Virus record (IMG/VR): IMGVR_UViG_3300033155_000407
DNA length: 64,000 bases
Direction: 5' to 3' (one strand)
Source of the DNA: a virus
Lineage: Duplodnaviria > Heunggongvirae > Uroviricota > Caudoviricetes
The notes under the pieces were generated by a model, which saw nothing but the letters and a program-made list of their open reading frames with translations, was not told the origin of the DNA and searched no databases. Shown here one piece after another: positions 15,535 to 33,595 of the stretch (position 1 is its first letter; the number at the start of each line of letters is the position of its first letter). Position numbers and translations under genes: made by a program.

Positions 15535-15990
15535 ATGGACTTAAAAAATATGCTACTACCAGAAAAGGTGGTAACGTTCGAATTTCCTGGGTGCGAAGGT
15601 TTATCTTTCGACCTTGCTTTTTTATCTAAAGAAAGCAACCAGGCACTATACAAAAAATGTCAAAGAACTAAGTTTGACAAACAAAGGAATGAAGTTGAAG
15701 ACTTTGATGATGTATTGTTTCTTCAACTATACGTAAAATCTATCGTCAAGGGGTGGAAAGGATTTAAATTAAATTACCTAACAGAATTCGTATTAGCGGA
15801 TGTAGGTAGTCACGGAGAAGAAGAGTTAGATTTCTCAGATGAAAACGCTTTAGAGTTAATGAAGAACAGTGTACTGTTTGATAATTGGGTTAGTAAGGTT
15901 ATTGCAGACCTGGGAAACTTCACTACGAGCGTCTCGAAGACGAAATTGGAAGACTTGAAAGATACGTCAAAGAGTCCAGCTCGGGATTAA
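15535..15990 (+). CDS. tail assembly chaperone (G-like)
   Basis: 151-aa acidic protein immediately upstream of the tape measure; it contains the slippery heptamer G GGA AAC at 15912-15918. Confidence 0.55.
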   Translation: MDLKNMLLPEKVVTFEFPGCEGLSFDLAFLSKESNQALYKKCQRTKFDKQRNEVEDFDDVLFLQLYVKSIVKGWKGFKLNYLTEFVLADVGSHGEEELDFSDENALELMKNSVLFDNWVSKVIADLGNFTTSVSKTKLEDLKDTSKSPARD

Positions 15991-16319
15991 GTAAAGAACA
16001 ATATTTAGAAATGTGTGAAATGATGGGCAGTGAACCATTGGAAGAAGAAATGCCAGCAGAAAGAGGGGATCTATATATAGAAACTCAAATGGTATTAAAT
16101 TTGTATGATAAGCTGCCCGCTAAGTGGGAAGGAATGTCTGGAAGTTACTTAGGTAAGGACCTACTATTATTACCCATATTATGTGAAGAATTTGATATAG
16201 AAGATTGTATCAGAAAATATGCTTGGAATATTATACCCATAATAGATAGTTATGTGGCACAAGATATAGCCGAGAAAATAAAACGCCAATCGAAAGGAAA
16301 CACTAGTGGCTCAAGTTGA
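15897..16319 (+). CDS. T-portion of a predicted G-T -1 frameshift fusion chaperone (the -1 frame is open from 15897; the ATG at 16011 only if made independently)
   Basis: The -1 frame relative to G overlaps the G ORF by about 90 nt and contains a canonical X_XXY_YYZ site (GGGAAAC); this is the conserved lambda G/GT arrangement. Confidence 0.45.
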   Translation, partial: GYCRPGKLHYERLEDEIGRLERYVKESSSGLSKEQYLEMCEMMGSEPLEEEMPAERGDLYIETQMVLNLYDKLPAKWEGMSGSYLGKDLLLLPILCEEFDIEDCIRKYAWNIIPIIDSYVAQDIAEKIKRQSKGNTSGSS

Positions 16320-19300
16320 TCTAAAAGTATTTTTAAAAGCCGTCGGGATAAAACCCACTACTAAAGATTTAAAAGCTCTTAATGCTCAAATGGGTATTAC
16401 TGAAAAGAAAACTCGAGCCGTTAGTAAATCCGCCGGTGAATTAGACAGAAATATCAAGGGTACTGCGCAGATTACTAGTAATACAACTAAGGCATTCGCT
16501 AAACAATCTCAGGGTATGGGTGGTTTAATACAATCTTACGCTATAGTTGCTGCTCACGTATTTGCACTTAGCGCAGCTTTCCTAGTGTTACGTCGTACAG
16601 CAGATTTAAGTAGTATGATCAAGTCCGCTGAAAACTTCAGTACTAGATTTGGCGTTAGCGTTACACGTATCACTAAGCAAATGCAAGAAGCTAGTGGTGG
16701 TGCACTATCTTTTGCAGAGGCTTTACCTATTATTAACAAAGCGGTTTCTGCTGGGGTTCCAATTGAAAAAATGGAAGCTCTTACTAAAGCTGCTACTAAA
16801 GCTGCTCAAACTTTTGGTGGTTCTGCTACTGAAGCTTTAAATAGATTCATTAGTGCTTCACAGCGTGGTCGTGTGGAAATAATTCAAACACTAGGTGTTG
16901 TAATTAAAACTGAGGACGCATATAAAAGATACGCCGCTCAAATAGGAAAAACAGCACTAGAATTATCTGCCTTCGATAGACAACAAGCTATTCTAAATGC
17001 TACTATAGAAGCTAGTCAAAGTGTTTTCGACGGAGTAAAAATAGACCCTAATCCTTTCCAACAGTTACTAACTACTATTATAGATTTAAAAGATTCATTT
17101 GGAGTACTTCTTACAGATTTTCTAACTCCTATGATAGATCTATTTAATAAGTCTAAACTAGCCGCTGCAGGTTTTATAGGGGTAATAATACAAATAGTAT
17201 CCAGTCAATTATTTTCTGGAGCAGGTCAATTTTTCAAAGGCGTAGCAGCGTCGGGGCAAAAAGCTACTAGAGAAGTTAGAGCTTTAGGGAAGGCTAGTGA
17301 AGAAGTAGCAAAGAAGAGAGCAGCGGCCAATAAACTTGTTGCTACGGGTAGTACTAAATCCTTAAAAAGAGAAGTGTCGACTTTTGAAAATGCTCAAAGA
17401 AAAAAGGTAAATGCTCACGCTGACTTTGTAAAGAAAATTTTAACTCAAGAAGGTAAACTAAACAAGGGCGTATTATCTGGTAGAACTCTTGCATTACAGG
17501 CTAATATAGCAAATTTGAAAAAGGGTGGAAAAGGGGTTAAAGGTTTAGGTTCTATAGAAAGTTCCCAAAGACAATTAGCAGTATTAAAAGAACTTGCTTT
17601 ACGCGAAAAAATTGTAGGAACTTCTGCAGTAGCAAAAGGTTTTGATAGACAGGCTGCGGCAGCAAAAAGATTAACAGGTACTTTAGCTGTACTAAGTGCT
17701 AAACACGGTACGCTCAATATTTCAGTTAAAAAGGTAACTTCTGATATTAAAACAGGTTTTGCCCAAGGTTTTCAAATAGCTGAAGGTAGAGTAAGAAAAT
17801 CTATGAGGGGTATGTTGGTTGGTTGGAAAAAATTCGGCAGAGGTATGACTCAAGGTACACAAGGTATAAATACTAACTTATCAAACTTAGGAAAAGCTGT
17901 AGGTAGAACTGGTGGAATAATTGCGGGAATTGGTTCAAAAATACTTTCAAATTTGGGGTTATATATATTTGCGTTTACAATACTTAAATCAGCCTATACT
18001 TTTCTTGTAGATGCCCTTAATAAGGTAACTCCTGAACAGAAATTAATTAATGACGCTACAGAAGACTTTAAGGAGGGGATGGAGGCTGCCAACGTAACAT
18101 TAGCGAAAGGTATAGAACTATGGGGAGACAAGGCACCTAGTTCTTTAAAAGAATTTGGAGATTCCTTTACCTTTATAGGGGGAATTTTTGAAAGTGTGGC
18201 CAACGAAGTTAATAGATTTTCGCAGAAATCAGTAAAAGCCCTAGACGGTTTAACTGTAGACGGGGCATTAAAGGAATTAAATAAGTTAAACGCCAGAAGT
18301 CAAGAGTTACGAGCAAGCCCCAAACAAGAATTCGCATTAGGTTTACCGGAAGAAGGTACTACTACTACCATATCATTAGAAGCTCGTCGAGAACTTACAC
18401 AAACTACCCTTGCAGCAGAAAAACTAAATTCCACTTTAATAGGTATAGGTCAGGCTGATATCCTAAGTTCGTTAATAAATCAATTTAAATCTGCTACTGG
18501 TTTTGCTGAAGATCTTGGCATTGTGTATACTGAAGTATTTTTAGAAAGTGCTAAAGTATTTAGCGGTTTAAATTCAGAAATAGGGGTGTTCAATGCTTTA
18601 CAGTTGAGAGGATTAGCTGTAGCGGGAGATTGGGACGCTTTAAGATCTAGAGTTAGTGAGTTAAAAGAAGAATTTAAGGATAATGGGGCAGCTCTAGTTT
18701 TATTAAATACACTCACTATTAAGTTCTTTTCTAGCGCATCGGGGGAGATAACTAGTTTAAGTAGAAGCGCAGCTAATAGCTTAAAACAACTACAAGAAGT
18801 ATCTGTAAATTTCAATACCTTTCAATTAGGTCTAGAAAAATTAAAGTCTCAAAAATCTCCTTTTAAGGAAGTTTTTGGTTTTGCAATATCTGCGGAAAGA
18901 GCACTAAGAGATTTAATAGAAGTACAAAATGTCGCACCTAGTAAAACACTAGAAGAAGCTTTTGCTACAGGGGAGATATCTAAAGATCTAGAAGGTATAG
19001 CTGCACTATTAGGTAGTGGAAAACTTACATTAAAAGAAGCAGTTGCAGAAGCTGAGAGACAAAGAAAAATCTTCCAAGAACAACTAGAATTTCAACTGTT
19101 AGGTACTAAAAGATTAAAAGTTTTAAGTACTGATTTGGCTACTTTAAAATTAAAAGAAATTAAAAGTGACGAAGCTAGATTATCTATTATAACTGCCATA
19201 GAAAGTAAAGAAAAAGATATAAACACACAAAAACTAGCTCAGGCTGTATCTAATAGAAATGCAGCTCAAACTATAGTAGATAGCAGCAGTAAAGCAAATC

Positions 19301-20736
19301 TAGCAGACGCGGAAGCGACCTTAGCTGTATTTGAGGCAGAAGTAAGATCTTTAATAGAAAGGGGTAGAGTACTAGCTGCAAGTACTAAGAGAGAACAGGA
19401 AAGGCTAAAAATAGTTAGAGAAGTAATAAGTAACGATCAAGCTATACTGGCGGCAAGAAAATCTGTATCAAATATCAACAAAAAATTAGTCACTAGCACT
19501 GTAGCTTTCCTAGCCGAATCAAAAAAGATTTTCCTATTAGATAAGCAAAGATTAGCTAATAGTGTAAAAGATATAGAAGCTAGAAAGGAACAAATTTTAA
19601 TAGAACAAGACGCGGGCCCTTCTCGCGAAAGAGCCTTAGCTTTAGAAGAAGAAAAACTACTAGTATTAGAAGCTCAATCTAGAGAACTAGAACGTCAACA
19701 AATGAGCCGTAGAGCTAGAGAGGATGAACAAATCGGGGGTCTTACTGTATTTTCTGAAGAGGGTATAGGGAAAACTGTGGATTTCTTTATCATAGCTATG
19801 CAACAGGGTGTCAATAAACTAAAAAGCACCTTCGAAATACTAGGAAAAGGTTTTGCGGATACTATTAATGCTACCTTCGATAAAGCGGTAGACAACTTAC
19901 TGGAGGGCGGCCACGACTTTGGGCGTGCAGTAATAGAAACCTTGAAAGAGGGATTAAGGGAAACTTTTGGGGAAGCATTAAAGTCCAGAATTAGAGATTC
20001 ATTGAATACTATATTTAGCTCTGGTAGAGGAGACGAAAGTTTAAATAAACAACTACAAGCCTCTGAACAACTTACTTCAACTACTAAATTAAATACTTTT
20101 GCCTTAAACAAACTTACTACAGAACTTAAGGGTAATAGTGTACTTCCCAGTGGAGTAAAACCTGTCGAACAGGCTAAAGATTCAATTATAGCGCCTTTAA
20201 GTGATGTTTTAAGTGATAAATTAAATTTCGGAAAAACAGAAGATACTTTAGCAAGTATACAAGGTGTACTTGGTGAATCTAAAGATATAACTAAACAAGG
20301 CTTCTTAGATAATATAAAAACGTTAGGATTACTATTATTTGAAATGATTAAACAGGGTGCGAAAGCAATAGCTGGGGGTATAGGTTCGCTCTTTGGATTC
20401 GGTACTGGTGGTATTGCATCTGGAGGTTTCTCAAGTATACCTAAATTAGCCGCTGGCGCGATAGCTACTGGTCCAAATTTAGCTTTAATAGGTGAAGGTA
20501 GTAGAAATGAGGCGGTAGTACCACTACCCAATAATAGAGAGATTCCCGTAGATCTAAAGGGTGCCGTAGGAGATACTGTAAACATCGAACAAAACTTTGA
20601 TTTCCGAGGGGCCTCAACTGACGCTATACCACTATTAAGACAAGAAGCAAGAGCTATAGAAGATAGAACATTCGCTAGAGTATTTTCAGAAATCAACCGT
20701 GGCGGTAGAGCTGCACAAATAACAGGACGTAGATAA
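16306..20736 (+). CDS. tail tape measure protein
   Basis: 1476 aa, largely alpha-helical and repetitive, GTG start with an AAGGA RBS; the position fits. Confidence 0.85.
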   Translation: MAQVDLKVFLKAVGIKPTTKDLKALNAQMGITEKKTRAVSKSAGELDRNIKGTAQITSNTTKAFAKQSQGMGGLIQSYAIVAAHVFALSAAFLVLRRTADLSSMIKSAENFSTRFGVSVTRITKQMQEASGGALSFAEALPIINKAVSAGVPIEKMEALTKAATKAAQTFGGSATEALNRFISASQRGRVEIIQTLGVVIKTEDAYKRYAAQIGKTALELSAFDRQQAILNATIEASQSVFDGVKIDPNPFQQLLTTIIDLKDSFGVLLTDFLTPMIDLFNKSKLAAAGFIGVIIQIVSSQLFSGAGQFFKGVAASGQKATREVRALGKASEEVAKKRAAANKLVATGSTKSLKREVSTFENAQRKKVNAHADFVKKILTQEGKLNKGVLSGRTLALQANIANLKKGGKGVKGLGSIESSQRQLAVLKELALREKIVGTSAVAKGFDRQAAAAKRLTGTLAVLSAKHGTLNISVKKVTSDIKTGFAQGFQIAEGRVRKSMRGMLVGWKKFGRGMTQGTQGINTNLSNLGKAVGRTGGIIAGIGSKILSNLGLYIFAFTILKSAYTFLVDALNKVTPEQKLINDATEDFKEGMEAANVTLAKGIELWGDKAPSSLKEFGDSFTFIGGIFESVANEVNRFSQKSVKALDGLTVDGALKELNKLNARSQELRASPKQEFALGLPEEGTTTTISLEARRELTQTTLAAEKLNSTLIGIGQADILSSLINQFKSATGFAEDLGIVYTEVFLESAKVFSGLNSEIGVFNALQLRGLAVAGDWDALRSRVSELKEEFKDNGAALVLLNTLTIKFFSSASGEITSLSRSAANSLKQLQEVSVNFNTFQLGLEKLKSQKSPFKEVFGFAISAERALRDLIEVQNVAPSKTLEEAFATGEISKDLEGIAALLGSGKLTLKEAVAEAERQRKIFQEQLEFQLLGTKRLKVLSTDLATLKLKEIKSDEARLSIITAIESKEKDINTQKLAQAVSNRNAAQTIVDSSSKANLADAEATLAVFEAEVRSLIERGRVLAASTKREQERLKIVREVISNDQAILAARKSVSNINKKLVTSTVAFLAESKKIFLLDKQRLANSVKDIEARKEQILIEQDAGPSRERALALEEEKLLVLEAQSRELERQQMSRRAREDEQIGGLTVFSEEGIGKTVDFFIIAMQQGVNKLKSTFEILGKGFADTINATFDKAVDNLLEGGHDFGRAVIETLKEGLRETFGEALKSRIRDSLNTIFSSGRGDESLNKQLQASEQLTSTTKLNTFALNKLTTELKGNSVLPSGVKPVEQAKDSIIAPLSDVLSDKLNFGKTEDTLASIQGVLGESKDITKQGFLDNIKTLGLLLFEMIKQGAKAIAGGIGSLFGFGTGGIASGGFSSIPKLAAGAIATGPNLALIGEGSRNEAVVPLPNNREIPVDLKGAVGDTVNIEQNFDFRGASTDAIPLLRQEARAIEDRTFARVFSEINRGGRAAQITGRR

Positions 20737-21344
20737 TGGCAGCAATAGCTTTTCCTAGTATAGAGGCAGAGATACAAGATTTTGGTATATCTTATAATAC
20801 ACAAGTATCAAGTTCAGATATAAGTGGTGTTACACAAACCGTAGAATTACCAGGTGCACGGTGGGCAGGTAGTCTTAGTTATAGAGATATGACAGTAGTC
20901 GAATCCGCAACTCTAAAAAAGTTTTTATTGCAGTTAAGGGGTTCCTCGGGAAGATTCTTTTACGGAGATCGTACTCATACTGATCCATTTAATGTTGTAA
21001 CTGGTAGCCCAACTGTAACGGTTGTAGCGGGTAATAGAGGATTGATAAGAGTAACGTTGGGGGGTGGAAGCCCTGTATTCTCCCCCGGAGACTTCATTCA
21101 GATAGGTATCGATGACCAAAGAGAATTAAAGATGGTTCTAGCTTCAGCTATTGTATCGGGGGATACACATGAGCTAACTATAGAACCTTTAATAAGAAGA
21201 AATATTTATTCAGGGCAAAACGTAGTATATACTAGTCCTACAGGGGTATTTATGTTAAGTGCAAGTGATCAGGCTAAATGGGCATCAAGAACTAAGGCTC
21301 AATTATCTGATATGAGTATAAGTTTTATAGAGGTATTCTCGTGA
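20736..21344 (+). CDS. distal tail protein (gpM/Dit position)
   Basis: 202 aa directly after the TMP; the assignment is positional. Confidence 0.45.
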   Translation: MAAIAFPSIEAEIQDFGISYNTQVSSSDISGVTQTVELPGARWAGSLSYRDMTVVESATLKKFLLQLRGSSGRFFYGDRTHTDPFNVVTGSPTVTVVAGNRGLIRVTLGGGSPVFSPGDFIQIGIDDQRELKMVLASAIVSGDTHELTIEPLIRRNIYSGQNVVYTSPTGVFMLSASDQAKWASRTKAQLSDMSISFIEVFS

Positions 21345-22396
21345 TAAAGACCGTTAACTCTACAGTACAAGCTTCACTAGATAGTGAGAGTTTAGCTGGT
21401 GTAGTATTGGCTAAATTAGATTTTAGCCCTGCTGTAAGGTATACTAATGCTTATCAAAGTATTTACTGGGACGAAGCCGGTGGTGGAGAATTAGAGTATA
21501 TAGGTCTAGGAAATCTGGCAAGTATGTCCGTACTTAATGAGACTAGTGAGTTGGGTGCTACTACTATTCAATTAACTTTATCTGGTATTCCTAATGCTTC
21601 TATTACAGATATATTTAGTAATGAATATATTGGTAAACCCCTACAAGTATGGTATGCTACACTTGATAAAGATACTTATGCAGTAGAAGGGGGACAAAAT
21701 GGCCCAGTACTATTATTTGCAGGTAGAATGGATTTTGGTAATATAGAATTTGGGGAAACAGCAACAATAACAGTAAATGCAACTTCTAGGCTAGCAGATT
21801 GGGAAAGACCAAGGGGTGGACGATTTAATCATGCCTACCAAACTAGACACGTAGATGCTACTGATTTAGGTTTTAGGTGGGTTCAGGGTATACAAGATAA
21901 AATAATAAGTTGGGGTGGGGTTACTGTTGGAGATCCTGGTAATGGTCAAGATGATAGATTTAACGATATGTGCCCACATTGTTGCTTTACACCTGATACA
22001 CTTATTACAATGGCTGATGGAACTACACAAACAATCAATTTAGTACAATTAGGTGATTGGATTAAAGTAGTAACGGGTGTGGAAGAAGTGACTGATATTA
22101 TTACAAGAACAAACCGTCTTATGTATAAAATTACTTTTGAAGATAATACAATATTGAAAGCTTCTGAAGATCACCCACTATTTGTAGAGCATAAGGGTTT
22201 TGCTTCTATCAATCCAGATCCTAATATTAGTTATAAAGATCTTGGAGTTGCGAAACAGTTAGAAGTTGGAGACAGTGTAAAAACTGTAACTGGAGATACA
22301 GTTAAAATTATAGAAATGAAAACTATTCATTATCCAGAAACGGTGTATACATTTAGTAATTCGCGATTCTATGCAAATGGTGCACTAGTATACTAA
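21341..22396 (+). CDS. gpL-like tail tip protein with a C-terminal Hint (Hedgehog/intein-like) domain
   Basis: The N-terminal 200 aa resemble lambda gpL; from C215 (nt 21983) the sequence CFTPDTLITMADGTTQTINLVQLGDWIKV...SEDHPLFV... matches intein blocks A and B; the protein ends ...FYANGALVY. Confidence 0.6.
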   Translation: MIKTVNSTVQASLDSESLAGVVLAKLDFSPAVRYTNAYQSIYWDEAGGGELEYIGLGNLASMSVLNETSELGATTIQLTLSGIPNASITDIFSNEYIGKPLQVWYATLDKDTYAVEGGQNGPVLLFAGRMDFGNIEFGETATITVNATSRLADWERPRGGRFNHAYQTRHVDATDLGFRWVQGIQDKIISWGGVTVGDPGNGQDDRFNDMCPHCCFTPDTLITMADGTTQTINLVQLGDWIKVVTGVEEVTDIITRTNRLMYKITFEDNTILKASEDHPLFVEHKGFASINPDPNISYKDLGVAKQLEVGDSVKTVTGDTVKIIEMKTIHYPETVYTFSNSRFYANGALVY

Positions 22397-22797
22397 TGAA
22401 GAATTTAACTGATATTATATATCAATATAAAGACACAGAATTTAGTTGGGGAAATTTAGATTGCTGTATATTTACTGTAAAAGTAGTTGAAGAATACAAA
22501 GACATAACTCTTCCACTTTGGAGAGATGTAGTAACATATAAAAAAGAAAAGGGAGCAATGAAAGCTTTAATTAAATTAGGATGTAAAAGTATAGTAGATT
22601 TACCCTCTATTATTTTAAATACACCTAAAAAAGATATTTCACAAGTAAAATTAGGTTACCCAGTATACTATATTAATGAAGACAACATTGGTATACTTGG
22701 TGTATGCAATGGTGTTAGAACTTACTTCTTACAAAAAGGTGGGGGTCTAACAGCTAGAAATACGCAGGACTGTAAATATTGTTGGAGTATTGATTAA
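22396..22797 (+). CDS. hypothetical tail tip protein (gpK position; no His, so not an active NlpC/P60)
   Basis: 133-aa ORF between the L-like and I/J-like genes. Confidence 0.4.
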   Translation: MKNLTDIIYQYKDTEFSWGNLDCCIFTVKVVEEYKDITLPLWRDVVTYKKEKGAMKALIKLGCKSIVDLPSIILNTPKKDISQVKLGYPVYYINEDNIGILGVCNGVRTYFLQKGGGLTARNTQDCKYCWSID

Positions 22798-25700
22798 TGG
22801 TAACTGCAGCAGTTTTAGTAAATCTTTTTGTTGGTGGCGGAGCAGTAGCCGCGGCAGGTTTTGCGGGCATAGGTTTTGCAATTGGAGCTATAGTAATCAA
22901 TTTAGCTATAGCTGCTTTACTGGGGAAAATATTAGCACCAGATGCACCTAAAAGTGGTAGAGATACTAAGGGTATACAAAATGTAATTCGTAGCAATATA
23001 ATGCCACGTAGAATTATATACGGAGAAGCTGTAACTGGTGGACCCTATGCTGTATTAGAAACTATAGGTATTACTAATAGTATATTAAATATGGTTGTAG
23101 TAATATCTGCTCATCCTGTAGAAGATATTATTGGTGTATTTATAGATGACCAATACGTAAATATATCGGGTAAAACTAGTGGTTCTACCAATATTGATTC
23201 TAATGATTTAGATGTTAATTATTTCCTAAATACTGGGAAGTTTGGTACCGGTGCGGCCGAAGAGCACGTTAAAATTATTAAAGTTAATGGTTGGGGATTT
23301 GCAGATAATCAATATGTAACTGATGGGGGAACATCTACAGAAGCTGCGAGAGATAGAATTAAGGCCGGTTTAATACAAACCGCATTAACTACAGCATGGG
23401 GTGGAGCAGGAGCAACTAGAGACAGCGGTACAGGTTTATATACAGATAGTGGATATAAACTTACTAACTGTGCATATATTTTTGTAAGTATTAAATTCAA
23501 CAGAGATGTGTGGTCTGGTTTTCCAAGATTAAAATTTCATGTAAAAGGTAAAAGACTTTATAATCCTGAACAAGATCCAACAAACTTCACGGCAGAAGGG
23601 GCTGACGTTGGTGGTACTCATGTATTAAATGATCCCGATACATATACATGGTCTGAAGATTGGTCGTTAAGTATATTAGATTATCTATTAAATACTTCCT
23701 ACGGTTTGGGAGCAAAAATTTCAGGAACATTAATAGAGATAAATTGGACAGAAATGATCCAATCTGTTTTGGATTCTTCGGCGGTTGTTGATACTGGAAT
23801 CGATGCGGCCACCTCAGCTAGATACACAACTAATGGAGTACTAGAAACTAATAGTACTCCTATTTCAAATATGGAAGCGATGCTTACTTCTGGGGGAGGA
23901 GAGTTAATATATGCACAAGGTGCTTATAAATTACGTCCAGCTATATACAGATTACCGGACTCAATAAATGATATCATAAACGAAGATATGATGGTATCCC
24001 CTTTAAGTATAAGAACACATACCCCTAGAGGGGACTTGTTTAACAAAGCTGCTGGAGTATTTACGGATAAAGGTACTCTACCTCTTAGACCTAAGTTTGA
24101 ACCTTCAGATTTTACAATAGTAGATCCATTAGATAGTTCTGGACTTAATCCTTTTGAAGTAATTGACGATGAAGAGATAATAAGAGAGTTTGACTTCCCC
24201 TTCACAATTAGGGATTTTGAAGCGCAAAGACTTGCTAGAATACAGTTAGAAAGGGTTAGAAGAGGTTTGGCAGTTACTTTTGAAGCTAACTTAAAAGTAT
24301 TGAAATTTTCAGTAGGGGACACTGTATACTTAGAAGTTCTTAGTAATTCTAAGTATGCTAATGAAAGCTTTTTTAATAGGCTAGGCTTAGATGATACAGT
24401 ACAAAATCGTCCAGAGGCGCCTTTTACCGCATACTATAAACAATTCAAAATAGTAGATATGCAGTATACCAAAGATGCAACAATTGAAGTATCAATGATT
24501 GAAGAAGCAGAAGAAATATATGACTGGAATGATGGGGACGCTAGTGCTACACCTAATGCTTTAGAATCAGAAATTATAGCAGATGATCCAACCGGCGTTG
24601 TATTACAACCGGATTGGTTTGTAGCTAGTCCACTGACTGTATTTACAGAAGTCACATCTGCTACTTCGGGTTCCACAGTTACTACTTTAGTAAGATGGAA
24701 TGCAGCAACTAGGGGTACATTGATAAATGCTGTAGATCAAGTACATATATCTTTCTACACTCTAGAATATGGCATAGTTACCAATCCTTCTCTAGTAGGG
24801 GAACTTAGAGTAGATACTTGGATTCCTGCGGGAAATAAAACTTCTGATCATAGTCAAATTTTACAGGGGCCCATCCCTTTAGAAACTTTATTTAAAGACG
24901 CAGCAGAATACGATTTTAGAGTTTCTGCCACTACTTATGGTGGTAGAACATCTCTTTGGGCTTACCATAGTACAGATATTGGAACAGATTATCTTCCTGG
25001 AACTCCTCCAGCTTCGGTTGTAGATACTTTCTATATTAAACCTATAAATGGTACCGCTATAAAAAATGGTTTAGGTACTCTAACTGTAGAGGCTCATTCT
25101 ATTGTAGGTGGAATAGATACTTTACTTTCAGCAGGTACTATTCAATTATATGTGGGAACTACCTTAGTAGAGGTAGCTTCTCCCGGTAACTTTACATCTC
25201 CTTCAGATGGCTATACTGGCACGTTTGATATAGATGATATAACAGGTAGTATAATAGTAGAATTAAAAGATGGTCCAGCAGGAACTATTCTAGATACTAT
25301 TACACTTGTAGATATTGATGATGGGTTAGCTGGGGGGGACGCATTTTACGGATATATAGAAGCAACTAATGGTTTAGCTTGGACTCAAGCAACTAATGGT
25401 GGAGCTTGGAATCCCGGATCACCTACTACTCAACTTGACTTCACTGTAGTTCAAAATGGGAATATAGTAGCTCAAGATGCTTATTTAGTTACTAGAGATG
25501 CAGCAGGATTATTAACTGGAAGCGCGGCCACTCACAGTGTTTCACCGGGAGATTTTGCCGATTCACCTGGAAATATAGCTATAGTTCCTAGTGGTAGTGG
25601 AACTCAAGCTTTTACTGTAGTATTTGAATATACTAATGGGACGGACGGAATCTCAGTAGGAGAAACAGTACTTACATCTGTGGGGGCAGATGATGGTATT

Positions 25701-25841
25701 GCAGGTGGCACTGGTGTAGCGGTACGTCATGTTAATATGTATAATCTTAATGATAATACTGTAGCAGATCCTACTGGGGGCACCTTTGCTATACCAATCT
25801 CAGGCACTAACGCTAGTGATGGTTGGACATTAAATGTATAG
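22797..25841 (+). CDS. central tail fibre / host specificity protein (fusion of a gpI C-terminal-like segment and a gpJ-like protein)
   Basis: The Gly-rich hydrophobic N-terminus and KILAPDAP...PRRIIYGEAVTG resemble the lambda gpI C-terminus; YNPEQDPTNF...SEDWSLSILDYLLNTSYGLGAKI resembles the conserved gpJ region; the C-terminus runs into the 264-bp repeat array and stops at a TAG created by a 25-nt deletion. Confidence 0.75.
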   Translation: MVTAAVLVNLFVGGGAVAAAGFAGIGFAIGAIVINLAIAALLGKILAPDAPKSGRDTKGIQNVIRSNIMPRRIIYGEAVTGGPYAVLETIGITNSILNMVVVISAHPVEDIIGVFIDDQYVNISGKTSGSTNIDSNDLDVNYFLNTGKFGTGAAEEHVKIIKVNGWGFADNQYVTDGGTSTEAARDRIKAGLIQTALTTAWGGAGATRDSGTGLYTDSGYKLTNCAYIFVSIKFNRDVWSGFPRLKFHVKGKRLYNPEQDPTNFTAEGADVGGTHVLNDPDTYTWSEDWSLSILDYLLNTSYGLGAKISGTLIEINWTEMIQSVLDSSAVVDTGIDAATSARYTTNGVLETNSTPISNMEAMLTSGGGELIYAQGAYKLRPAIYRLPDSINDIINEDMMVSPLSIRTHTPRGDLFNKAAGVFTDKGTLPLRPKFEPSDFTIVDPLDSSGLNPFEVIDDEEIIREFDFPFTIRDFEAQRLARIQLERVRRGLAVTFEANLKVLKFSVGDTVYLEVLSNSKYANESFFNRLGLDDTVQNRPEAPFTAYYKQFKIVDMQYTKDATIEVSMIEEAEEIYDWNDGDASATPNALESEIIADDPTGVVLQPDWFVASPLTVFTEVTSATSGSTVTTLVRWNAATRGTLINAVDQVHISFYTLEYGIVTNPSLVGELRVDTWIPAGNKTSDHSQILQGPIPLETLFKDAAEYDFRVSATTYGGRTSLWAYHSTDIGTDYLPGTPPASVVDTFYIKPINGTAIKNGLGTLTVEAHSIVGGIDTLLSAGTIQLYVGTTLVEVASPGNFTSPSDGYTGTFDIDDITGSIIVELKDGPAGTILDTITLVDIDDGLAGGDAFYGYIEATNGLAWTQATNGGAWNPGSPTTQLDFTVVQNGNIVAQDAYLVTRDAAGLLTGSAATHSVSPGDFADSPGNIAIVPSGSGTQAFTVVFEYTNGTDGISVGETVLTSVGADDGIAGGTGVAVRHVNMYNLNDNTVADPTGGTFAIPISGTNASDGWTLNV

Positions 25842-26700
25842 TATATGTAACTACTAGAACATTTACAGATGATGCATCTTCACCACAGGATCCTAGTTGG
25901 TCTTCTACCTCTATATATGCTACAAGAGTAGATGGAGTAATAGGTCTTACCGGTCAAGCGGTACGTCATGTTAATATGTATAATCTTAATGATAATACTG
26001 TAGCAGATCCTACTGGGGGCACATTTAATACCCCAATCTCAGGCACTAATGCTAGTGATGGTTGGACATTAAATGTACCATCTTTGGCCTCAAATGGGGA
26101 CATAGTATATGTAACTACTAGAACATTTACAAATGATGCCGGATCTCCACAAGACCCTAGTTGGTCATCTACTTCTATATATGCCCAAAGAACTGATGGT
26201 GCTACCGGTGCTACTGGTGTAGCAACTCGTCATGTTAATATGTATAATCTTAATGATAATACTGTAGCAGATCCTACTGGGGGCACCTTTGCTATACCAA
26301 TCTCAGGCACTAACGCTAGTGATGGTTGGACATTAAATGTAATGCATCCTCTCCTCAAGACCCTAGTTGGTCAGCTACTTCTATATATGCTACAAGAGTA
26401 GATGGAGTAATAGGTCTTACCGGTCAAGCAGTACGTCATGTCAACATGTATAATCTTAATGATAATACTGTAGCAGATACTGCTGGGGGCACATTTAATA
26501 CCCCAATCTCCGGCACTAATGCTAGTGATGGTTGGACATTAAATGTACCATCTTTAGCATTAGATGGAGATATAGTATATGTAACTACTAGAACATTTAC
26601 AAATGATGCTGGATCTCCACAAGATCCTGCTTGGTCAGCCACTTCAATTTATGCTCAAAGAACGGATGGAGCTACTGGTGCTACTGGTGCTACAGGAGCA
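25698..26700 (+). repeat. tandem array of a 264-bp (88-aa) coding repeat, about 4.5 copies, two of them carrying deletions of 25 and 58 nt
   Basis: The unit-end motif ggttggacattaaatgta occurs at 25821-25838, 26060-26077, 26324-26341 and 26530-26547 (spacings 239, 264 and 206 nt). Confidence 0.85.
25820..26401 (+). pseudogene. repeat-only open frame linking the J-like gene to the giant fibre gene (frameshifted linker; no genuine start codon)
   Basis: The ORF-track M at 25823 is a TTG; the frame opens at 25820 immediately after a stop; its 192 aa are entirely repeat units. Confidence 0.4.
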
Positions 26701-29700
26701 GACGGATCCGTAGGTTGGGGTCACGATTTAATATTCTCTGTTGGTTCTTCTCCGGACGATCCAGCATTAGTAGTACAATGGACTTCAGGAACTATATGGA
26801 CAGCAGCTGGGTTAACTTTCCCTATAGATGCCGGAGACACCGGAGTAATGTCTGCTAGAACTTTTATATATTTTAACGGTGCTAGCCCTATACCAACTAC
26901 TATGTCTTTAACTACGAGTGCAGTAACTTCTGTAGGATTAGATAAAATATTAGTAGCAGTAGCAGAAAATACTACTACAGAAGCATTTTTCCAAGTATTC
27001 GGTGGTAGAGGTGGATTAAAAATTGCAGGGGACGAAATAGCGGCTAACTCTATAATAGCAAATAATGTTAATGCTAGTTTCTTTACAGGTAGAACCTTCC
27101 AAACTAGAGCACTTCTGTCAGAACAAACATCACCGTTTTCTACTAACCCTAGAGCTTCAATGCATGAAGGTGGATTTACTTTACAAGATGCGGAAGACAA
27201 CTCTGTATTTGAAGCAGATGCTACCGATGGACATTTAATAGTTGGTGGTACTTCTGATATTAATAATATTAGTGCCACTTCTATACAAGGTTGGGCTCAA
27301 TCAGCTATAGATGCTATAGCAGATAGATTAGGAACTGTAGGTCCTACAAATCCAACTGGTGGATCATTTACTTTCGCATCTTTACCCTTAGATATACCAG
27401 GTACAAGTGATGCAACTATTACGGGTGATACCCCAACTTCTGGGGTACTTAGTCATAAGGGTGGGGAAACTGTAAGTTTATCTTGCAGAGTATATGATGC
27501 TACTTTTGGATTCTTTTCTACTAACCAAAATTTTGTATCTCCAAGTTATGATGTTCAATTTAGAAGAGCTGTAAGTCCTTATACTGTTTGGGGAGATATA
27601 GGGGCACCACAAACTGTAACTGGAACATCTTTAAACGTGTTTGATCAGGAAATAGCAAAGTGGGAATGTTCCTTTAGAATAAATACAACAGCTTTAATGA
27701 CAGATGTTACTGGTGTTGACGCAACTGATTATAAATATCGAGCTGTTGTTTCGTATAATTCTGGATCCTTTAGTGCTATTAGTAGGATTACTGCTTTTAC
27801 TTATGCAGAACCAATATTTGGAGATGCTGCAGAAGGTAACGTCAGCAATACCGGAACACCACTCGACAATCAGATTGCTATCTGGACTAATTCTACGACC
27901 ATTGAAGGTGTTACAAACCTGACTTATGATGGTACAGACTTTGATGTAAATGCCAACCTCTTCATTGGTGGGGATGCTATAGGTCACTTTGAGACTGTTA
28001 GCGGGGTAGAAGGGTCAGTTCAAGCTGACGGAAAGGAGGGTTCGACTGGATTCTTTGCCGGCTATGCTGTTGGCAATAGATCCGGATTCTTCGACAATGT
28101 TGGAACGTTAACAACTAATCAGATCGCCGTATACGACCAATTGAATGCTCAGTATGTTCTAAGATATAACGGTGACGCGTCTAGTCATCGTGTAGCTCTT
28201 TATAATGACGGCACATTAAAATTCCAGACCTTAACAACTGGAGTCTTGGTTGTAGGGGACGTAGGCGCATCGACATTCAGTGGTGTAGCTTTAACTACCG
28301 CAGGTGCTGCAACTAACTTCCTTGATGAGACAGGTGCGTACTCTGTGCCTGGCGGCACAGGTGGAACAGTAACTACTGTTTCAGTTGTTTCTGCTAATGG
28401 TATCAGTGGTACAGTTGCAACAGCAACTACAACTCCAGCAATCACGCTTGCCTTAGATGATATTACTCCTGAGAGTATTGTAATTACTCCAGCTTCACCT
28501 CAAAATTTCACTGAAATTAGTAGTAGTATTGGTACATTTTTCATACGGCCAGCTAATGGTATATTAAGCGTATCTAAATCTGGTACACAATCTCGAGTTA
28601 GAGCGTATGGCCCTACAGCAGGTGGATTTCTTTATACTTCTATAACTCATAATGATACTGATGGGTGGGTAGAAAGTAATACCGGTGTACTAAACGTAGT
28701 AGGTGATAGTGATGTAGTTATAAGAACACAAGGAAATGAGCCTACTATCACGTGTACATCTGGTGGAGCAGTTACGATAAAGCATAATGTTAGTGCTAAA
28801 TTCGCAACTACTTCTACTGGGGTAGCTATAACAGGTGGTTTAACAACTACTACAACAGTTGCAGCTACGGGTAACGTTACGGGCGCGAACCTTTCAGGTT
28901 CAAACACTGGAGACAATGCGGGTGTAACAGCAGTTACAGGTGGCACAGGTGTAGATTCTACAGGAGGTAATACTCCAGATATTACACTAGATGTTGCTGA
29001 ATTAGCAGTTGGTGGTACATTACTTGCAACTGATCATCTTATAGCTGCTAATGCTGCGGTAAGTAATAAACAATTAATATCGTCTATACCTTTAAGTATA
29101 TTTAATGATGATATTGGTGCTGGTGGTGGGGGTACAGTTGGAGGTACAGGTACTGATAACTTTTTAGCTGTTTGGAACGGTACTGCTAACATTGATGCTG
29201 GGGATAGTTTTCTTGTAACGAATGCCGTTGACAAGTCTGCTGTAGAAGCTATCGCGGGTGCTTGGTCTTTCAGTGGATTAAACACAGTGACAGGTGGTTC
29301 ACTGCGATTCAACGACGGTGTAGACTGCATATTTGGAACTACCTCTGATGTTGCTATTAATTTCAATGGTGTTACTACCTTCGACATACAGATGATAAGT
29401 GGGGTAGACTTCCTTCTAAGGGGTGGAAGTGCGGGTTCAAAACCGATGATTGATGCTAGCTCCAATAGTCATGTGGCATTGTATTGGAACGGTAGTGTTA
29501 AGTTCATAACACAAACAACGGGAGTAGGTATAACTGGAACTTTGGCAGCAACAACTGTCACTGGTGCTAATGTAACTACGGGTGCTGATCCGGGGCATAC
29601 GCATACTACTGCTAGTATTACCGGACTATCGGGCACTAACACCGGTGACAATGCGGGTGTAACATCGGTTACAGGTGGTGTAGGTATTGATTCAACAGGG

Positions 29701-31992
29701 GGTACTACTCCAAGTATCACATTAGATGTTTCTGAATTAGGTCTCGGTGGTACATTACTTGCAACTGATCATCTTGTAGCTGCTAATGCTTCAGTAAGTA
29801 ATCGTCAAGTAATTTCATCTATACCATTAAGTATATTTAATAATAATTCTGGTTGGACAAGTAATACTGGTACAGTAACAAGTGTTACAGGTGGCACAGG
29901 TGTAGATTCAACAGGGGGTACTACTCCAAGTATCACATTAGATGTTAACGAGTTAGCAGTTGGTGGTACACTACTTGCAACTGATCACCTTATAGCTGCT
30001 AACTCTACAGTAAGTAATAAACAATTAATATCATCTATTCCACTAAGTATTTTTAATGATGATATAGGTGCTGGCGGAGCTTTCCTTCCTTTAGCTGGTG
30101 GCGCACTGACAGGTGCCACAAGCATCTCTGCTCAGTTTACGGTCTTACCACAGAACCTGATAATGCTAGATGCTGATGCAACGACACTTCGTTCGTATAT
30201 TGCAACGAAAGACGTAGCAGGAGTAGAGCGTAAGATTCTGGTTCGTGGTTCCTCACTCGATAGAATTAACATATCGAACGTGAACTTCGATACGAACATT
30301 CAGTACAAGACCCTTTTGATGTTCAATGGGTCGGAGAACCTCACGATTGGTGGTGACCTCAATATAGGGGGTGACGCTACAGGTCACTTTGAAACTGTTA
30401 GTGGGATAGAAGGTTCTGTACAAGCTGACGGAAAGGAAGGTTCCACTGGATTTTTTGCAGGTTACTCTGTTGGTAATAGATCTGGATTCTACGATAACGC
30501 CGGAACGTTGACAACTAATCAGATTGGCATATACGATCAACTGAATACTCAGTATGTTCTAAGGTATAACGGTGACGCGTCTAGCCATCGTGTAGCTCTT
30601 TACAATGACGGCACATTAAAATTTCAGACCTTAACAACTGGAGTCCTGGTTGTAGGAGATGTAGGTGCAACAACCTTTAATGGTGGAACTCTTTCAGGTT
30701 CAAATACTGGAGATAATACAGTTAACACCAGCGTAAACCTATCCGACTACTCTGGTGACGCAGACTCGGCAACCACTCGTGGTAACCGTCGTGTCAATAG
30801 CACAGCAACTAACATGCCTACGGCTAGTACCTTCTGGTCTATGATGACGTATGGCAATGGTTCAAATGTTGCTGCTCAGTTAGCTACACATTTTACGACT
30901 GGTGACACTTACGTTAGAGCATTCAATACGGTATGGTCTTCTTGGACCCAACTAGGTTCTGGCTCAGTAGCGTTTAATGATTTGACCAGTAAGACAAGTG
31001 GCACAGGTAATTACACAACTACAGGTGACTTCACCGCAGACAACTTCGAAGCTACTGGTCTTGGACCGAACAGTACTCCAGGAACTGATGATTCTTACTT
31101 TGGCGGGTATGGAGTGTTGGGTAGTCGTGCTAGTACTACTTACGTCAGTAATGTTGCTGGAGCCGTCTCACTAAATCACACTGGCATTCACGGCACTAAT
31201 ATAAAACTCGCAACGACTACAACTGGTGTTGCTATAACGGGGGGTATTACGGTTACGTCAACTACGCTGGTAACCAATCTAAATGCTGACAGACTTGACA
31301 GTGTTCACGGCTCTTCATTCCTACGATCAGATGCTGCGGATCAGAAGACCTCCGGCAACCTAAGATTCAATGACAACATTCAGTTGAATTTTGGTAATGG
31401 GGACGACGTTGATATGTACTTTAGTGGCGTAGACTTCTTTATTGATATGCCAGCTACGACATCAGACTTTAGAGTGCGTGGTGGCACTGGTGGCACTGAA
31501 GTAATGTTTGCTGGTATCGCAAACGGTCAGGCTATAATGTATTACAATGGTCTCCCCGGTATTCAGACTCAAAGTCATACGGCAACGGGTAACACTTCAG
31601 GGGGCACGGTTACAGATCATGAGAATAGTCCTAGAGACTTGGGATTCAATGATGTTAAAGTCACTGACAATAACCCTGCTTCCGTAACCCTTGCGGCAAA
31701 CCAGTGTGGTTCCTCAATCGTGATGGATGACAACACAGCATTCACAGTTACGCTGCCAGCATCGACCGGACTAGATTTCCCAGTGGGGGGAATGACTATA
31801 CTTATTAATGCTAATACTTCAGCAGTTAATATGACTATAGTGGACACAGCCTCTGCTACTTGTTACTATATGAGCGGTACTGCTAGGACTGATATTGCGG
31901 GTACTGCTACATTGGGTCCGGGTGGAGTTGCTACTATATACAGACAAGAAGCGGCCATATTTTTAATCTGGGGAACAGGTATAACACCATGA
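26326..31992 (+). CDS. giant tail fibre protein (1888 aa) with a repeat-derived N-terminus and internal duplicated modules
   Basis: The frame opens at 26323; the apparent start is TTG with no RBS; Gly/Thr/Ser/Asn-rich fibre-like composition; internal duplications at 27961-28284 and 30361-30687, and a triple repeat at 28900-29125, 29632-29860 and 29880-30080. Confidence 0.75.
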   Translation: MDIKCNASSPQDPSWSATSIYATRVDGVIGLTGQAVRHVNMYNLNDNTVADTAGGTFNTPISGTNASDGWTLNVPSLALDGDIVYVTTRTFTNDAGSPQDPAWSATSIYAQRTDGATGATGATGADGSVGWGHDLIFSVGSSPDDPALVVQWTSGTIWTAAGLTFPIDAGDTGVMSARTFIYFNGASPIPTTMSLTTSAVTSVGLDKILVAVAENTTTEAFFQVFGGRGGLKIAGDEIAANSIIANNVNASFFTGRTFQTRALLSEQTSPFSTNPRASMHEGGFTLQDAEDNSVFEADATDGHLIVGGTSDINNISATSIQGWAQSAIDAIADRLGTVGPTNPTGGSFTFASLPLDIPGTSDATITGDTPTSGVLSHKGGETVSLSCRVYDATFGFFSTNQNFVSPSYDVQFRRAVSPYTVWGDIGAPQTVTGTSLNVFDQEIAKWECSFRINTTALMTDVTGVDATDYKYRAVVSYNSGSFSAISRITAFTYAEPIFGDAAEGNVSNTGTPLDNQIAIWTNSTTIEGVTNLTYDGTDFDVNANLFIGGDAIGHFETVSGVEGSVQADGKEGSTGFFAGYAVGNRSGFFDNVGTLTTNQIAVYDQLNAQYVLRYNGDASSHRVALYNDGTLKFQTLTTGVLVVGDVGASTFSGVALTTAGAATNFLDETGAYSVPGGTGGTVTTVSVVSANGISGTVATATTTPAITLALDDITPESIVITPASPQNFTEISSSIGTFFIRPANGILSVSKSGTQSRVRAYGPTAGGFLYTSITHNDTDGWVESNTGVLNVVGDSDVVIRTQGNEPTITCTSGGAVTIKHNVSAKFATTSTGVAITGGLTTTTTVAATGNVTGANLSGSNTGDNAGVTAVTGGTGVDSTGGNTPDITLDVAELAVGGTLLATDHLIAANAAVSNKQLISSIPLSIFNDDIGAGGGGTVGGTGTDNFLAVWNGTANIDAGDSFLVTNAVDKSAVEAIAGAWSFSGLNTVTGGSLRFNDGVDCIFGTTSDVAINFNGVTTFDIQMISGVDFLLRGGSAGSKPMIDASSNSHVALYWNGSVKFITQTTGVGITGTLAATTVTGANVTTGADPGHTHTTASITGLSGTNTGDNAGVTSVTGGVGIDSTGGTTPSITLDVSELGLGGTLLATDHLVAANASVSNRQVISSIPLSIFNNNSGWTSNTGTVTSVTGGTGVDSTGGTTPSITLDVNELAVGGTLLATDHLIAANSTVSNKQLISSIPLSIFNDDIGAGGAFLPLAGGALTGATSISAQFTVLPQNLIMLDADATTLRSYIATKDVAGVERKILVRGSSLDRINISNVNFDTNIQYKTLLMFNGSENLTIGGDLNIGGDATGHFETVSGIEGSVQADGKEGSTGFFAGYSVGNRSGFYDNAGTLTTNQIGIYDQLNTQYVLRYNGDASSHRVALYNDGTLKFQTLTTGVLVVGDVGATTFNGGTLSGSNTGDNTVNTSVNLSDYSGDADSATTRGNRRVNSTATNMPTASTFWSMMTYGNGSNVAAQLATHFTTGDTYVRAFNTVWSSWTQLGSGSVAFNDLTSKTSGTGNYTTTGDFTADNFEATGLGPNSTPGTDDSYFGGYGVLGSRASTTYVSNVAGAVSLNHTGIHGTNIKLATTTTGVAITGGITVTSTTLVTNLNADRLDSVHGSSFLRSDAADQKTSGNLRFNDNIQLNFGNGDDVDMYFSGVDFFIDMPATTSDFRVRGGTGGTEVMFAGIANGQAIMYYNGLPGIQTQSHTATGNTSGGTVTDHENSPRDLGFNDVKVTDNNPASVTLAANQCGSSIVMDDNTAFTVTLPASTGLDFPVGGMTILINANTSAVNMTIVDTASATCYYMSGTARTDIAGTATLGPGGVATIYRQEAAIFLIWGTGITP

Positions 31993-32870
31993 GTATGAGT
32001 GTTTATCCCGTGTGTAATGCAGCACAACAGGGTTCCGTTGCCCCCCCACTGGTTAGTGCGTTAGGAAATGGGGATACTAATTCTGCTATTCTGTCCTCAG
32101 TTAAAGTAGGTGTGAGATTTGCTACTGATGGTGAGGAATATGAATTCCTTGCATCGGGTCCGCCTACTGCAACTATTGGTACTTGGCTGGATCAAGGTGT
32201 TTCTAGTGATGTCTGGGTTGAACACTTACGCACATCTGGAACCGAGACTAGATTTGCCGATCATCCTAATGCAACGCGCATTAACATAGCCTTAAACGCA
32301 AATTTTACACTTACAGATACCACTACAGGTGATGGTGCGAAGACCATCACAGGAACCTTTAAGTTCTGGGATGCAGCTAGTGGGGGTAACGTTTTAGATA
32401 CTACGTCAAGTGCCCAATATTCGGCAAATAGACTTGTTGATATGTGTCCTACTTGTTGTTTCACACCTTGGACGCTCATTACTATGGCCAATGGATTAAT
32501 GGCCAGAATTGTTGATATAAGGGAGGGGGATTTAATACAGGTTGAAGACGGGGTAGAGCCGGTTAAAAGTATTATTACACGTACAAATCGTGTTATGTAC
32601 CGAATTACATTTGCCGATGGTAGAGGATTAGAGTTGTCAGAGGATCACCCACTATATGTAGAGGGTAAAGGTTATTCTGCAATTAATCCGGATCCCGGTA
32701 TAGACTATAAAGACTTAGGTATTGCTGAACCTCTTTTAATAGGGGACAAGGTAAGAGATGTGGCAGGTAACTCTACTGCTATTAAAATCATAGATTGTAT
32801 TGAATATCCTAGCACAGTTTATACTCTTGAGAATTCCAAATTCTACGCTAATGGATTACTGGTATACTAA
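31989..32870 (+). CDS. fibre-associated protein with a C-terminal Hint domain (second copy)
   Basis: ATGA overlap with the fibre gene; from C157 (nt 32457) CFTPWTLITMANGLMARIVDIREGDLIQV...SEDHPLYV...FYANGLLVY, about 55% identical to the Hint domain of 21341..22396. Confidence 0.6.
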   Translation: MSMSVYPVCNAAQQGSVAPPLVSALGNGDTNSAILSSVKVGVRFATDGEEYEFLASGPPTATIGTWLDQGVSSDVWVEHLRTSGTETRFADHPNATRINIALNANFTLTDTTTGDGAKTITGTFKFWDAASGGNVLDTTSSAQYSANRLVDMCPTCCFTPWTLITMANGLMARIVDIREGDLIQVEDGVEPVKSIITRTNRVMYRITFADGRGLELSEDHPLYVEGKGYSAINPDPGIDYKDLGIAEPLLIGDKVRDVAGNSTAIKIIDCIEYPSTVYTLENSKFYANGLLVY

Positions 32871-32871
32871 T

Positions 32872-33360
32872 ATGGCAGGCATTTGTTTCTATTATGAAAA
32901 TTCAAACATAGATATATGTTCGGGAAAGGATTTGTTTGCATGGGACTACAATTGTAGGGCTGCCGAAGATATTGACAAGATGATTGTAATTAATCTGGCT
33001 AACTCTGTCCCCGAGAACCCCGGAGAGACTACAGGACGAACATATGATTTTAAGGTAGTACAATCACTAGAACAAGCAGAATTACTCATGAAAGGGGACC
33101 GTATTACACAAGTTGTATGTCCTTGGAATTTTGATCAACAAGTCACAGAGTTGTGGGATTATGATCACGAAACCGACTGGTACGTATTTGGTCCCGCACA
33201 AGGTTGGAGAGGTTATGATATGTATACTAACAAGATATCAATACCTGTATCTGAAGAATCGCCTATGTTCTCAGTTCATTCTGCAACTGTTATTCTTACC
33301 CATAGGTATAAAATAAATATAATTACAAAGCAACACGCTTTAAATACTAAACTTTCATAG
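32872..33360 (+). CDS. hypothetical protein (start moved to the ATG right after the upstream stop)
   Basis: ORF 32800..33360 in the track; the internal Met at 32872 avoids a 70-nt overlap with the upstream gene. Confidence 0.4.
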   Translation: MAGICFYYENSNIDICSGKDLFAWDYNCRAAEDIDKMIVINLANSVPENPGETTGRTYDFKVVQSLEQAELLMKGDRITQVVCPWNFDQQVTELWDYDHETDWYVFGPAQGWRGYDMYTNKISIPVSEESPMFSVHSATVILTHRYKINIITKQHALNTKLS

Positions 33361-33370: not shown

Positions 33371-33595
33371 ATGACAAACGAAGAATTAACAAACGTAATT
33401 TTAGCAGGATTGAATACTCTATCCAGCGAAGATGTAAAAGTATCAGCTAGAGAAATAGAAACATTAGCTGGTTTTAAGGAGATACTACGAGCTATTCTGA
33501 GTGGAGAGCTAATATTAGCCACACCAGATAGGGTTCTTCCAGAAGGTGTTGAATTACCTAAAGAGGAAAAAACCCCCGAGGAAGATAGCTCTTAA
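33371..33595 (+). CDS. small hypothetical protein (74 aa)
   Basis: GGAGAAAG RBS; its 3-prime end is duplicated as a 41-bp tandem repeat. Confidence 0.4.
   Translation: MTNEELTNVILAGLNTLSSEDVKVSAREIETLAGFKEILRAILSGELILATPDRVLPEGVELPKEEKTPEEDSS

Follow-up and report, generated by a model that had tools for sequence, protein, structure and literature searches.

Repeats cause mis-assembly and contig breakage in metagenomes that are assembled from short reads with de Bruijn graphs. In the laboratory strain of phage lambda, the side tail fibre gene stf is split into two open reading frames (ORFs) by a real single-base mutation fixed in one lineage, and phage tail genes such as those of the lambda G/GT-type tail assembly chaperones employ programmed −1 frameshifting. 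Phage receptor-binding or antireceptor proteins, e.g., the host-specificity proteins of Streptococcus thermophilus phages, carry collagen-like or tandem-domain spacers which vary by in-frame homologous recombination between repeats. Here, we analyze a locus that shares traits with each of these cases, namely a coding repeat array with a unit of 264 nucleotides (nt) at positions 25698-26700 of the Caudoviricetes record IMGVR_UViG_3300033155_000407, whose 64,000-nt stretch is referred to as the window. In the window, the array bridges a J-like tail-tip gene and a very large fibre gene, and it contains two frame breaks. Comparison with sister assemblies of the same phage indicates that these breaks are very probably assembly artefacts at a 119-nt exact repeat, and that the true gene encodes one J-like tail-tip/fibre fusion of 3,092 amino acids (aa).

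The repeat array is real and protein-coding. Tandem Repeats Finder detected a 264-nt period far above chance (score 756, 85 % matches) as well as a 206-nt variant period across 25838-26547, and the spacings between copies in ungapped repeat families (239, 264, 206 and 264 nt) correspond to a period of 264 nt with two copies that are short by 25 and 58 nt. These results bear out the 264-bp coding array that an earlier reading of the sequence alone (hereafter the original prediction) had proposed, and its approximately 4.5 copies of an 88-aa repeat can be refined to four complete 79-aa modules (RHVNMY...IYA[T/Q]R[V/T]DG) with 9-aa Gly-rich linkers between them. Two module types alternate, which leads to a higher-order period of 528 nt. 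Three-frame translation showed that the repeat peptide passes from frame to frame by a −1 shift at each step (0 to −1 to −2), in agreement with the predicted stepping from the J-like ORF through a 192-aa repeat-only ORF into an 1888-aa fibre ORF. The absence of a credible start for the fibre ORF, also part of that prediction, holds as well: the listed starts of the 192-aa and 1888-aa ORFs are TTG codons immediately 3′ of stops, and the earliest in-frame ATG of the fibre ORF, at 26446, lies within a repeat module and lacks a Shine-Dalgarno-like sequence, unlike many neighbouring genes, which are preceded by AGGAG or GAGG motifs.

Sister contigs were retrieved by exact-protein look-up with the DUF6950 protein encoded at the locus, and then with the neighbouring 293-aa and 202-aa proteins. 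They stem from JGI samples for whose six IMG sample ids no paper was found in the literature. In BLAST comparisons, the contigs L003-L005 matched the window at 100.000 % identity across 12396-25688 and 26887-32893, free of mismatches and of any further indel, and three of four sister assemblies lack any point difference over the ∼19 kb of flanking sequence. A MAFFT alignment of the whole gene (window, L003, L004 and L005; ∼9.2 kb) contains only one mismatch column, located at the edge of a lesion, and 273 gap columns, all of which fall between window positions 25687 and 26887. Gene calls at the locus differ between the assemblies (1214 + 1848, 965 + 172 + 1936, and 1034 + 126 + 180 + 1702 aa, versus 1014 + 192 + 1888 aa in the window), and the exact 1014-aa and 192-aa products of the window are recorded in no other assembly. 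Since the sister assemblies differ in this way, the predicted 25-nt and 58-nt deletions, which are indeed present in the window, could not be confirmed as a property of the phage genome. The junction motif had no exact matches in the collections metagenome_contigs and viral_contigs, neither of which contains the sister contigs. An identical distal tail protein is encoded on short contigs with MEGAHIT-style names (k141_...) in two ENA assemblies (L026 and L027; ERZ27227316 and ERZ27227323), indicating that the phage occurs in datasets beyond the JGI project.

The lesions in the individual assemblies were catalogued in coordinates of the restored sequence described below (Table 1). Within the tract, the longest exact repeat comprises 119 nt and is found at restored positions 2929-3047 and 3457-3575, i.e., at an offset of 528 nt. 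Of the ten lesions, nine are located no more than 5 nt from the edges of this repeat, as are both contig ends; a rough calculation puts the probability of 11 out of 12 events lying that close to four positions in a tract of 1.3 kb far below 1e-9. All right-hand lesions begin 4 nt short of where a repeat copy ends (the aligner put the 25-nt deletion of the window at −6, from where it can be shifted to −4), and all left-hand lesions finish 2-4 nt past the start of a copy. In each assembly both copies are hit on one side: the right in the window, L003 and L005, the left in L004, L007 and L008. The contigs L007 and L008 start 5 nt past the starts of copies A and B, respectively, at the same boundary where the deletions in L004 and L007 end. 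Both gaps of the window begin at one motif, TTAAATGTA, 5 nt before the 119-nt exact repeat ends.

The lesions range in size from 16 to 68 nt, with junction homology of 0-2 nt; only one of the ten has a length divisible by 3 and none a length divisible by 264, and the sizes show no selection on frame. For every lesion site, at least two other assemblies have the intact sequence. At the gap site of module 1, L004 and L007 carry CCATCACTTACTATAGATGGGGAT in frame, and the 58 nt missing from module 3 are present in frame in L004, L007 and L008. Overall, the lesions are specific to individual assemblies, and with one exception they coincide with the edges of the repeat and with sites where contigs end; when pooled, the sequences form one ORF. 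L005, the assembly with most lesions, also lacks 56 nt of unique fibre sequence corresponding to window 26832-26887 (missing at L005 14396-14397), a frame-breaking deletion seen only there.

To restore the gene, the four full-length copies were merged column by column, and the 16-nt duplication of L003 was left out. The result has 9,279 nt, i.e., the 9,196 nt of the window plus 25 and 58 nt, and contains 3,092 codons without internal stops and with exact 88-aa periodicity through the array; the region 25600-26800 grows from 1,201 bp in the window to 1,284 bp. The restored inserts, a CCATCACTTACTATAGATGGGGATA-type stretch of 25 nt after 25838 and the 58 nt CCATCTTTAACTATAGATGGGGATATAGTATATGTAACTACCAGAACATTTACCGACG after 26341, come from real sister contigs and not from a repeat consensus. 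Thus, putting back 25 and 58 nt, which the original prediction had suggested as a way to obtain one ORF of about 3000 aa, gives an ORF of 3,092 aa. The product of roughly 330 kDa, which includes the stretch WTLNVPSLTIDGDIVYVTTR, would consist of a lambda-J-like tail-tip part followed by four tandem modules of 88 residues, each made up of a 79-aa domain and a 9-aa Gly-rich linker, then by a short collagen-like hinge and lastly by a fibre of ∼1,760 residues. The fibre would be made as the C-terminal two-thirds of the J-like polypeptide and, because it would be part of a single J-like ORF, would need no start codon, frameshift or switch of its own.

Mis-assembly could explain this pattern as follows. 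The 119-nt exact repeat is common to modules 1 and 3, with its two copies offset by 528 nt, and even outside it the modules differ only sparsely. Assemblers working on short reads would be unable to thread such a repeat and would either halt there or misjoin, thereby losing or duplicating tens of bases beside the repeat. The 25-nt and 58-nt gaps of the window may represent two such misjoins, in which case the picture of three ORFs in three frames would be artefactual. A collapsed or mis-assembled tract was the second of three explanations offered by the original prediction, and it is the one which the data support: the lesions are not reproducible across assemblies, all but one lie at edges of the exact repeat, where other contigs end, and their correction by pooling restores the periodic frame. 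We infer that the assembler itself caused the lesions, with a scaffolder, a gap closer or a polisher as alternatives.

Several observations weigh against this explanation. The intact tract is a composite, and none of the five assemblies covering all or most of it is free of lesions. There are no repeated 12-mers near the 56-nt deletion of L005, for which the 119-nt repeat does not account. We could neither identify the assembler nor reproduce the ∼5-nt offset of the joins inside the repeat edges. In addition, the samples appear to belong to one project, as suggested by their consecutive IMG ids, and a shared wet-lab or pipeline cause is inseparable from a pure assembler cause.

Table 1. Features of the locus, and samples and lesions of the assemblies. 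Features are given in window coordinates; lesions and contig starts are given in coordinates of the restored sequence (nt 1 = window 22797).
Feature	Position	Strand	Remarks
Tape measure	16306-20736		phrog_3779
Distal tail protein	20736-21344		phrog_1302
Tail protein, 351 aa	21341-22396		phrog_2048
DUF6950	22396-22797		precedes the J-like gene
J-like ORF	22797-25841	+	1014 aa; coordinate mod 3 = 0
Repeat-only ORF	25823-26401	+	192 aa; coordinate mod 3 = 2
Fibre ORF	26326-31992	+	1888 aa; coordinate mod 3 = 1
J-like (central tail fibre / tail tip) N-terminal part of one large gene	22797-25724	+	up to the first Gly-rich linker
Module 1 (type B to A junction)	25725-25936	+	broken in the window by the 25-nt gap between 25838 and 25839
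Module 2	25964-26200	+	intact; 79 aa, RHVNMY...IYAQRTDG; identical across all assemblies
Module 3	26228-26406	+	broken in the window by the 58-nt gap between 26341 and 26342
Module 4	26434-26670	+	intact
Exact repeat copy A	25725-25838	+	119 nt when restored; 114 nt left in the window, the gap takes the last 5
Exact repeat copy B	26228-26341	+	identical to window 25725-25838
Collagen-like hinge GATGATGATGADGSVG	26668-26715	+	links the module array to the fibre proper
Fibre proper	26716-31992	+	opens with the conserved WGHDLIF...FQVFGG...DEIAAN domain
Lesions, window	3041-3065; 3571-3628		25-nt deletion; 58-nt deletion
Lesions, L003 (= L009)	3043-3066; 3554		JGI sample 3300033148; 24-nt deletion (1 nt off that of the window); 16-nt tandem duplication TTGGACATTAAATGTA
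Lesions, L004 (= L006)	2891-2931; 3425-3461		JGI sample 3300033143; 41-nt deletion; 37-nt deletion
Lesions, L005 (= L010)	3043-3097; 3571-3638; 4118-4173		JGI sample 3300033388; 55-nt deletion; 68-nt deletion; 56-nt deletion
Lesions, L007	3439-3461		JGI sample 3300033153; contig begins at 2934; 23-nt deletion
Lesions, L008			JGI sample 3300033142; contig begins at 3462; none
L011			JGI sample 3300033151

Three further repeats were observed in the window. Inside the fibre, a 216-nt unit is repeated 1.8 times at 29668-30057 with 84 % identity, and all assemblies agree there, which is consistent with trouble arising only at long exact repeats. A second tandem coding array of about six units of 240 nt, or three of 480 nt, is found at 44509-45958 in a 929-aa ORF (44311-47100); its copies are 72-74 % identical, in frame and unbroken, and it lies among large putative fibre-like ORFs (664, 845, 658, 747 and 929 aa) downstream of the main fibre. 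Finally, a perfect 41-nt tandem duplication (two copies of TACCTAAAGAGGAAAAAACCCCCGAGGAAGATAGCTCTTAA) at 33555-33637 extends across the stop of a 74-aa gene (33371-33595). The element is single-copy in L006, L007 and L008, and the duplication is probably a contig-join artefact of the window's assembly.

Conservation analysis showed that near relatives carry J-like and fibre parts in one frame. A homologue search with the restored tract returned only four proteins; the near-identical ones were overlooked, probably as the candidate list was flooded by Gly-X-Y words. The only relative in IMG/VR, L001/L002, shares 51-57 % aa identity. In L001, the J-like start, the hinge and the beginning of the fibre lie in a single ORF of at least 1,716 aa, which opens with the ATG at 9986 and runs up to the contig end; its residues 6-946 can be aligned with the J-like part and residues 1529-1716 with the start of the fibre, and the hinge, GPTGDPGDPGADGADGEVG, is accompanied by an unrelated ∼580-aa insert in place of the modules. 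P0001 is a 642-aa fragment with 50-61 % aa identity over the aligned segments (61 % over restored residues 719-973 of the J-like part; 72 % in the best local alignment). It joins ...ETVLTAIGGDEG-PQGPIGATGKTG-WGHDLTFS... in one frame and without any module, and its hinge, GPQGPIGATGKTG, is in frame with both flanks. Judged by these sequences, near relatives are built as J-fibre fusions, and the hinge is a site of insert gain and loss, with no modules in P0001, four in the phage studied here and the ∼580-aa insert in L001. The first explanation of the original prediction, a fibre made as a fusion to the J-like protein, therefore stands with respect to the fusion, as in L001 and P0001, and is not supported with respect to the frameshift and the repeat-mediated switch by which the fusion was supposed to be restored or controlled.

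The module itself is found more widely. The 79-aa module of the window (25725-26670) has the consensus Y.LN..GTF...W..VP.L..NGD.VY..TR.FT.D..SPQ..W..P.IYAQRTDG and no match in Pfam, PHROGs or PDB sequences. P0002, P0003 and P0004, which are proteins of a TARA ocean sample, a Victivallales metagenome-assembled genome and an ENA contig, contain the same module in tandem and in frame (...Y.LN..GTF..P...W...P.L...D.VY....W..P.I.AQRTDG), and we regard it as a candidate for a new phage-fibre repeat domain. Likewise, the ∼125-aa domain after the hinge (WGHDL[IT]F...FQVFGG.GGL...DEIAAN; window 26716-27120), for which there is no Pfam family, recurs in 11 more distant, unrelated metagenome loci (L012-L022), twice in L022. 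Its homologues at these loci are stand-alone fibre proteins of 578-1,591 aa with their own N-terminal regions of 130-490 aa, indicating that separate fibre genes exist in the wider family, none of them like the startless ORF of the window. The domain looks like a conserved element of fibre shaft or attachment, placed after a collagen-like stretch.

Among the alternatives to mis-assembly, the one which survives best, improbable as we consider it, is that the deletions are real, i.e., that the tract is a hotspot of hypermutation and a different deletion mutant, with a truncated or missing distal fibre, dominates in each sample, either as an on/off or length switch or as a host-targeting escape. 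The lesions do recur at the same few sites across assemblies, the hinge is evolutionarily plastic as described above, and a tail tip might in principle still be formed by a J-like protein that stops at 25841. Yet each of the four tract-spanning assemblies would have acquired two or three independent lesions while the flanking sequence remained without point differences in three of four sisters, and after a first frame break additional lesions are neutral and hence expected to be rare. The lesions are neither unit-length nor accompanied by junction homology, which argues against a repeat-mediated switch; two of them differ by 1 nt, one is a 16-nt tandem duplication, and they coincide with contig termini in two other samples. 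Moreover, damage on the same side of both repeat copies within an assembly is an algorithmic rather than a mutational pattern. Slightly less probable still is the more specific idea that the sequence beside the 119-nt repeats is a deletion hotspot which yields phage subpopulations without the 2,000-residue distal fibre, so that a stochastic fibre-on/fibre-off polymorphism would persist in nature and be fixed differently in each sample.

Very unlikely is also a reading in which the gaps exist in the phage and the fibre part has recently become a pseudogene, the third explanation of the original prediction, or the locus encodes three separate proteins. The window as given does contain three ORFs, and the WGHDL domain is found in stand-alone fibre proteins of more distant relatives. 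Those homologues, however, carry N-terminal regions of their own, whereas the 192-aa and 1888-aa ORFs have neither a credible start nor a ribosome-binding site. Neither stops nor substitutions have accumulated, and the shifted frames owe their openness solely to the fact that they are in-frame repeat modules. As the lesions vary among genomes that are otherwise identical, a pseudogene would need a different set of one to three independent deletions in each sample, next to ∼19 kb of flank that is free of point mutations in three of four sisters.

The weakest alternative, which we hold to be hardly credible, is that the sequence is correct and the full-length fusion is produced by two programmed −1 frameshifts at a conserved ...ACA TTA AAT GTA motif: both steps are indeed −1, and A-UUA-AAU, which we take to be loosely like slippery sites of the U UUA AAU type, is common to both overlap windows, but there is no X XXY YYZ heptamer in 25815-25841 or 26320-26401, the 100 nt downstream fold more weakly than shuffled sequences (minimum free energy −12.6 and −15.7 kcal/mol, z = +1.8 and +1.5), no Rfam family was detected in 24500-28000, L001, P0001 and the sister assemblies are in one frame at the corresponding sites, and the position of the shared motif at the end of the exact repeat accounts for its presence in both windows.

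Four other candidates were rejected. An ancestral 25-nt deletion copied with the 528-nt super-unit (58 = 25 + 33) was dropped, as both sites are intact in sister assemblies and the shared boundary is the edge of the exact repeat. A target of a diversity-generating retroelement is not compatible with the lack of substitutions in the alignment of the window with L003-L005, where the only mismatch column is at a lesion edge; no search for a reverse transcriptase was made. Phase variation by unit slippage is contradicted by lesions that are never 264 or 528 nt long. An independent fibre gene is known in distant relatives only with its own N-terminus, and near relatives are fused.

The region upstream of the fibre corresponds to a siphovirus-type tail module, in which the J-like gene is placed after the genes for the tape measure, the distal tail protein, a tail protein and the DUF6950 protein. 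Residues 223-517 of the J-like ORF match phrog_5616 'tail fiber protein' (E = 2.6e-32), and tblastn searches with the J-like part found annotated J proteins with 20-27 % identity and E values down to 2e-20, described as 'central tail fiber J', 'host specificity protein' or tail protein in phages of E. coli, Pelagibacter and Roseobacter. No Pfam family scored above the cut-off for the J-like part. Both its homology and its gene position at the tail-tip module point to membership in the J family. For the fibre part there was no match among Pfam, PHROGs, PDB sequences or cultured phages (tblastn of 26701-29400 for the latter), and megablast of 22797-32000 against cultured phages gave no nucleotide-level match. 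Nothing credible was found for the fibre N-terminus, or for the module, in Pfam or PDB sequence searches. An AlphaFold model of one module, built from an eight-row alignment, is of low confidence (mean predicted local distance difference test score 61, with 34 of 96 residues below 50) and contains three beta strands. The window encodes no tRNAs. The 351-aa tail protein and the 293-aa protein (31989-32870) have weak, sub-cut-off Pfam hits of the Hint, AXH or Vint type (E values from 4e-5 to 9e-3), which may reflect a shared beta-rich fold or chance.

The value of this locus is mainly cautionary, since a startless, three-frame pattern in a metagenomic phage contig dissolves when sister assemblies are compared. 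Annotation of the window contig as it is would wrongly split the single 3,092-aa gene into three, of 1014, 192 and 1888 aa, and the sister contigs would be affected likewise; in practice, one gene should be annotated here in the window contig and in the sister contigs. Modestly useful beyond this are a very large J-fibre fusion, an uncharacterised 79-aa module, a conserved post-hinge domain of uncultured phage fibres and a hinge with inserts that are gained and lost between relatives.

With regard to known systems, the locus resembles lambda stf in that an indel makes a tail-fibre gene appear as consecutive ORFs in different frames. In contrast to stf, the lesions vary between assemblies of one genome and vanish on pooling. 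As in lambda G/GT, two overlapping ORFs of the tail module are related by a −1 shift, but here the shift is not conserved, the relatives are in one frame, and neither a slippery heptamer nor a stimulatory structure accompanies it. No unit-length variant was seen among the assemblies, in contrast to the spacers of Streptococcus thermophilus phages, with which the locus shares Gly-X-Y stretches and repeated modules at a hinge that varies between related phages. Phage lambda gpJ is similar in its remote homology and in gene position after the tape measure, the distal tail protein and small tail-tip genes, but the 3,092-aa protein is about three times as long and includes the module array, the collagen-like hinge and a ∼1,760-aa fibre without detectable homologue in cultured phages. 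In mis-assembly at repeats, classical collapse drops whole units, whereas here 16-68 nt beside the repeat are affected and the unit count is kept, and the 56-nt deletion of L005 lies outside the repeats. As in other such cases, the trouble is confined to a tandem array with an exact repeat of about read or k-mer length, contigs end at the repeat edge, and small indels at the joins vary by assembly between identical flanks.

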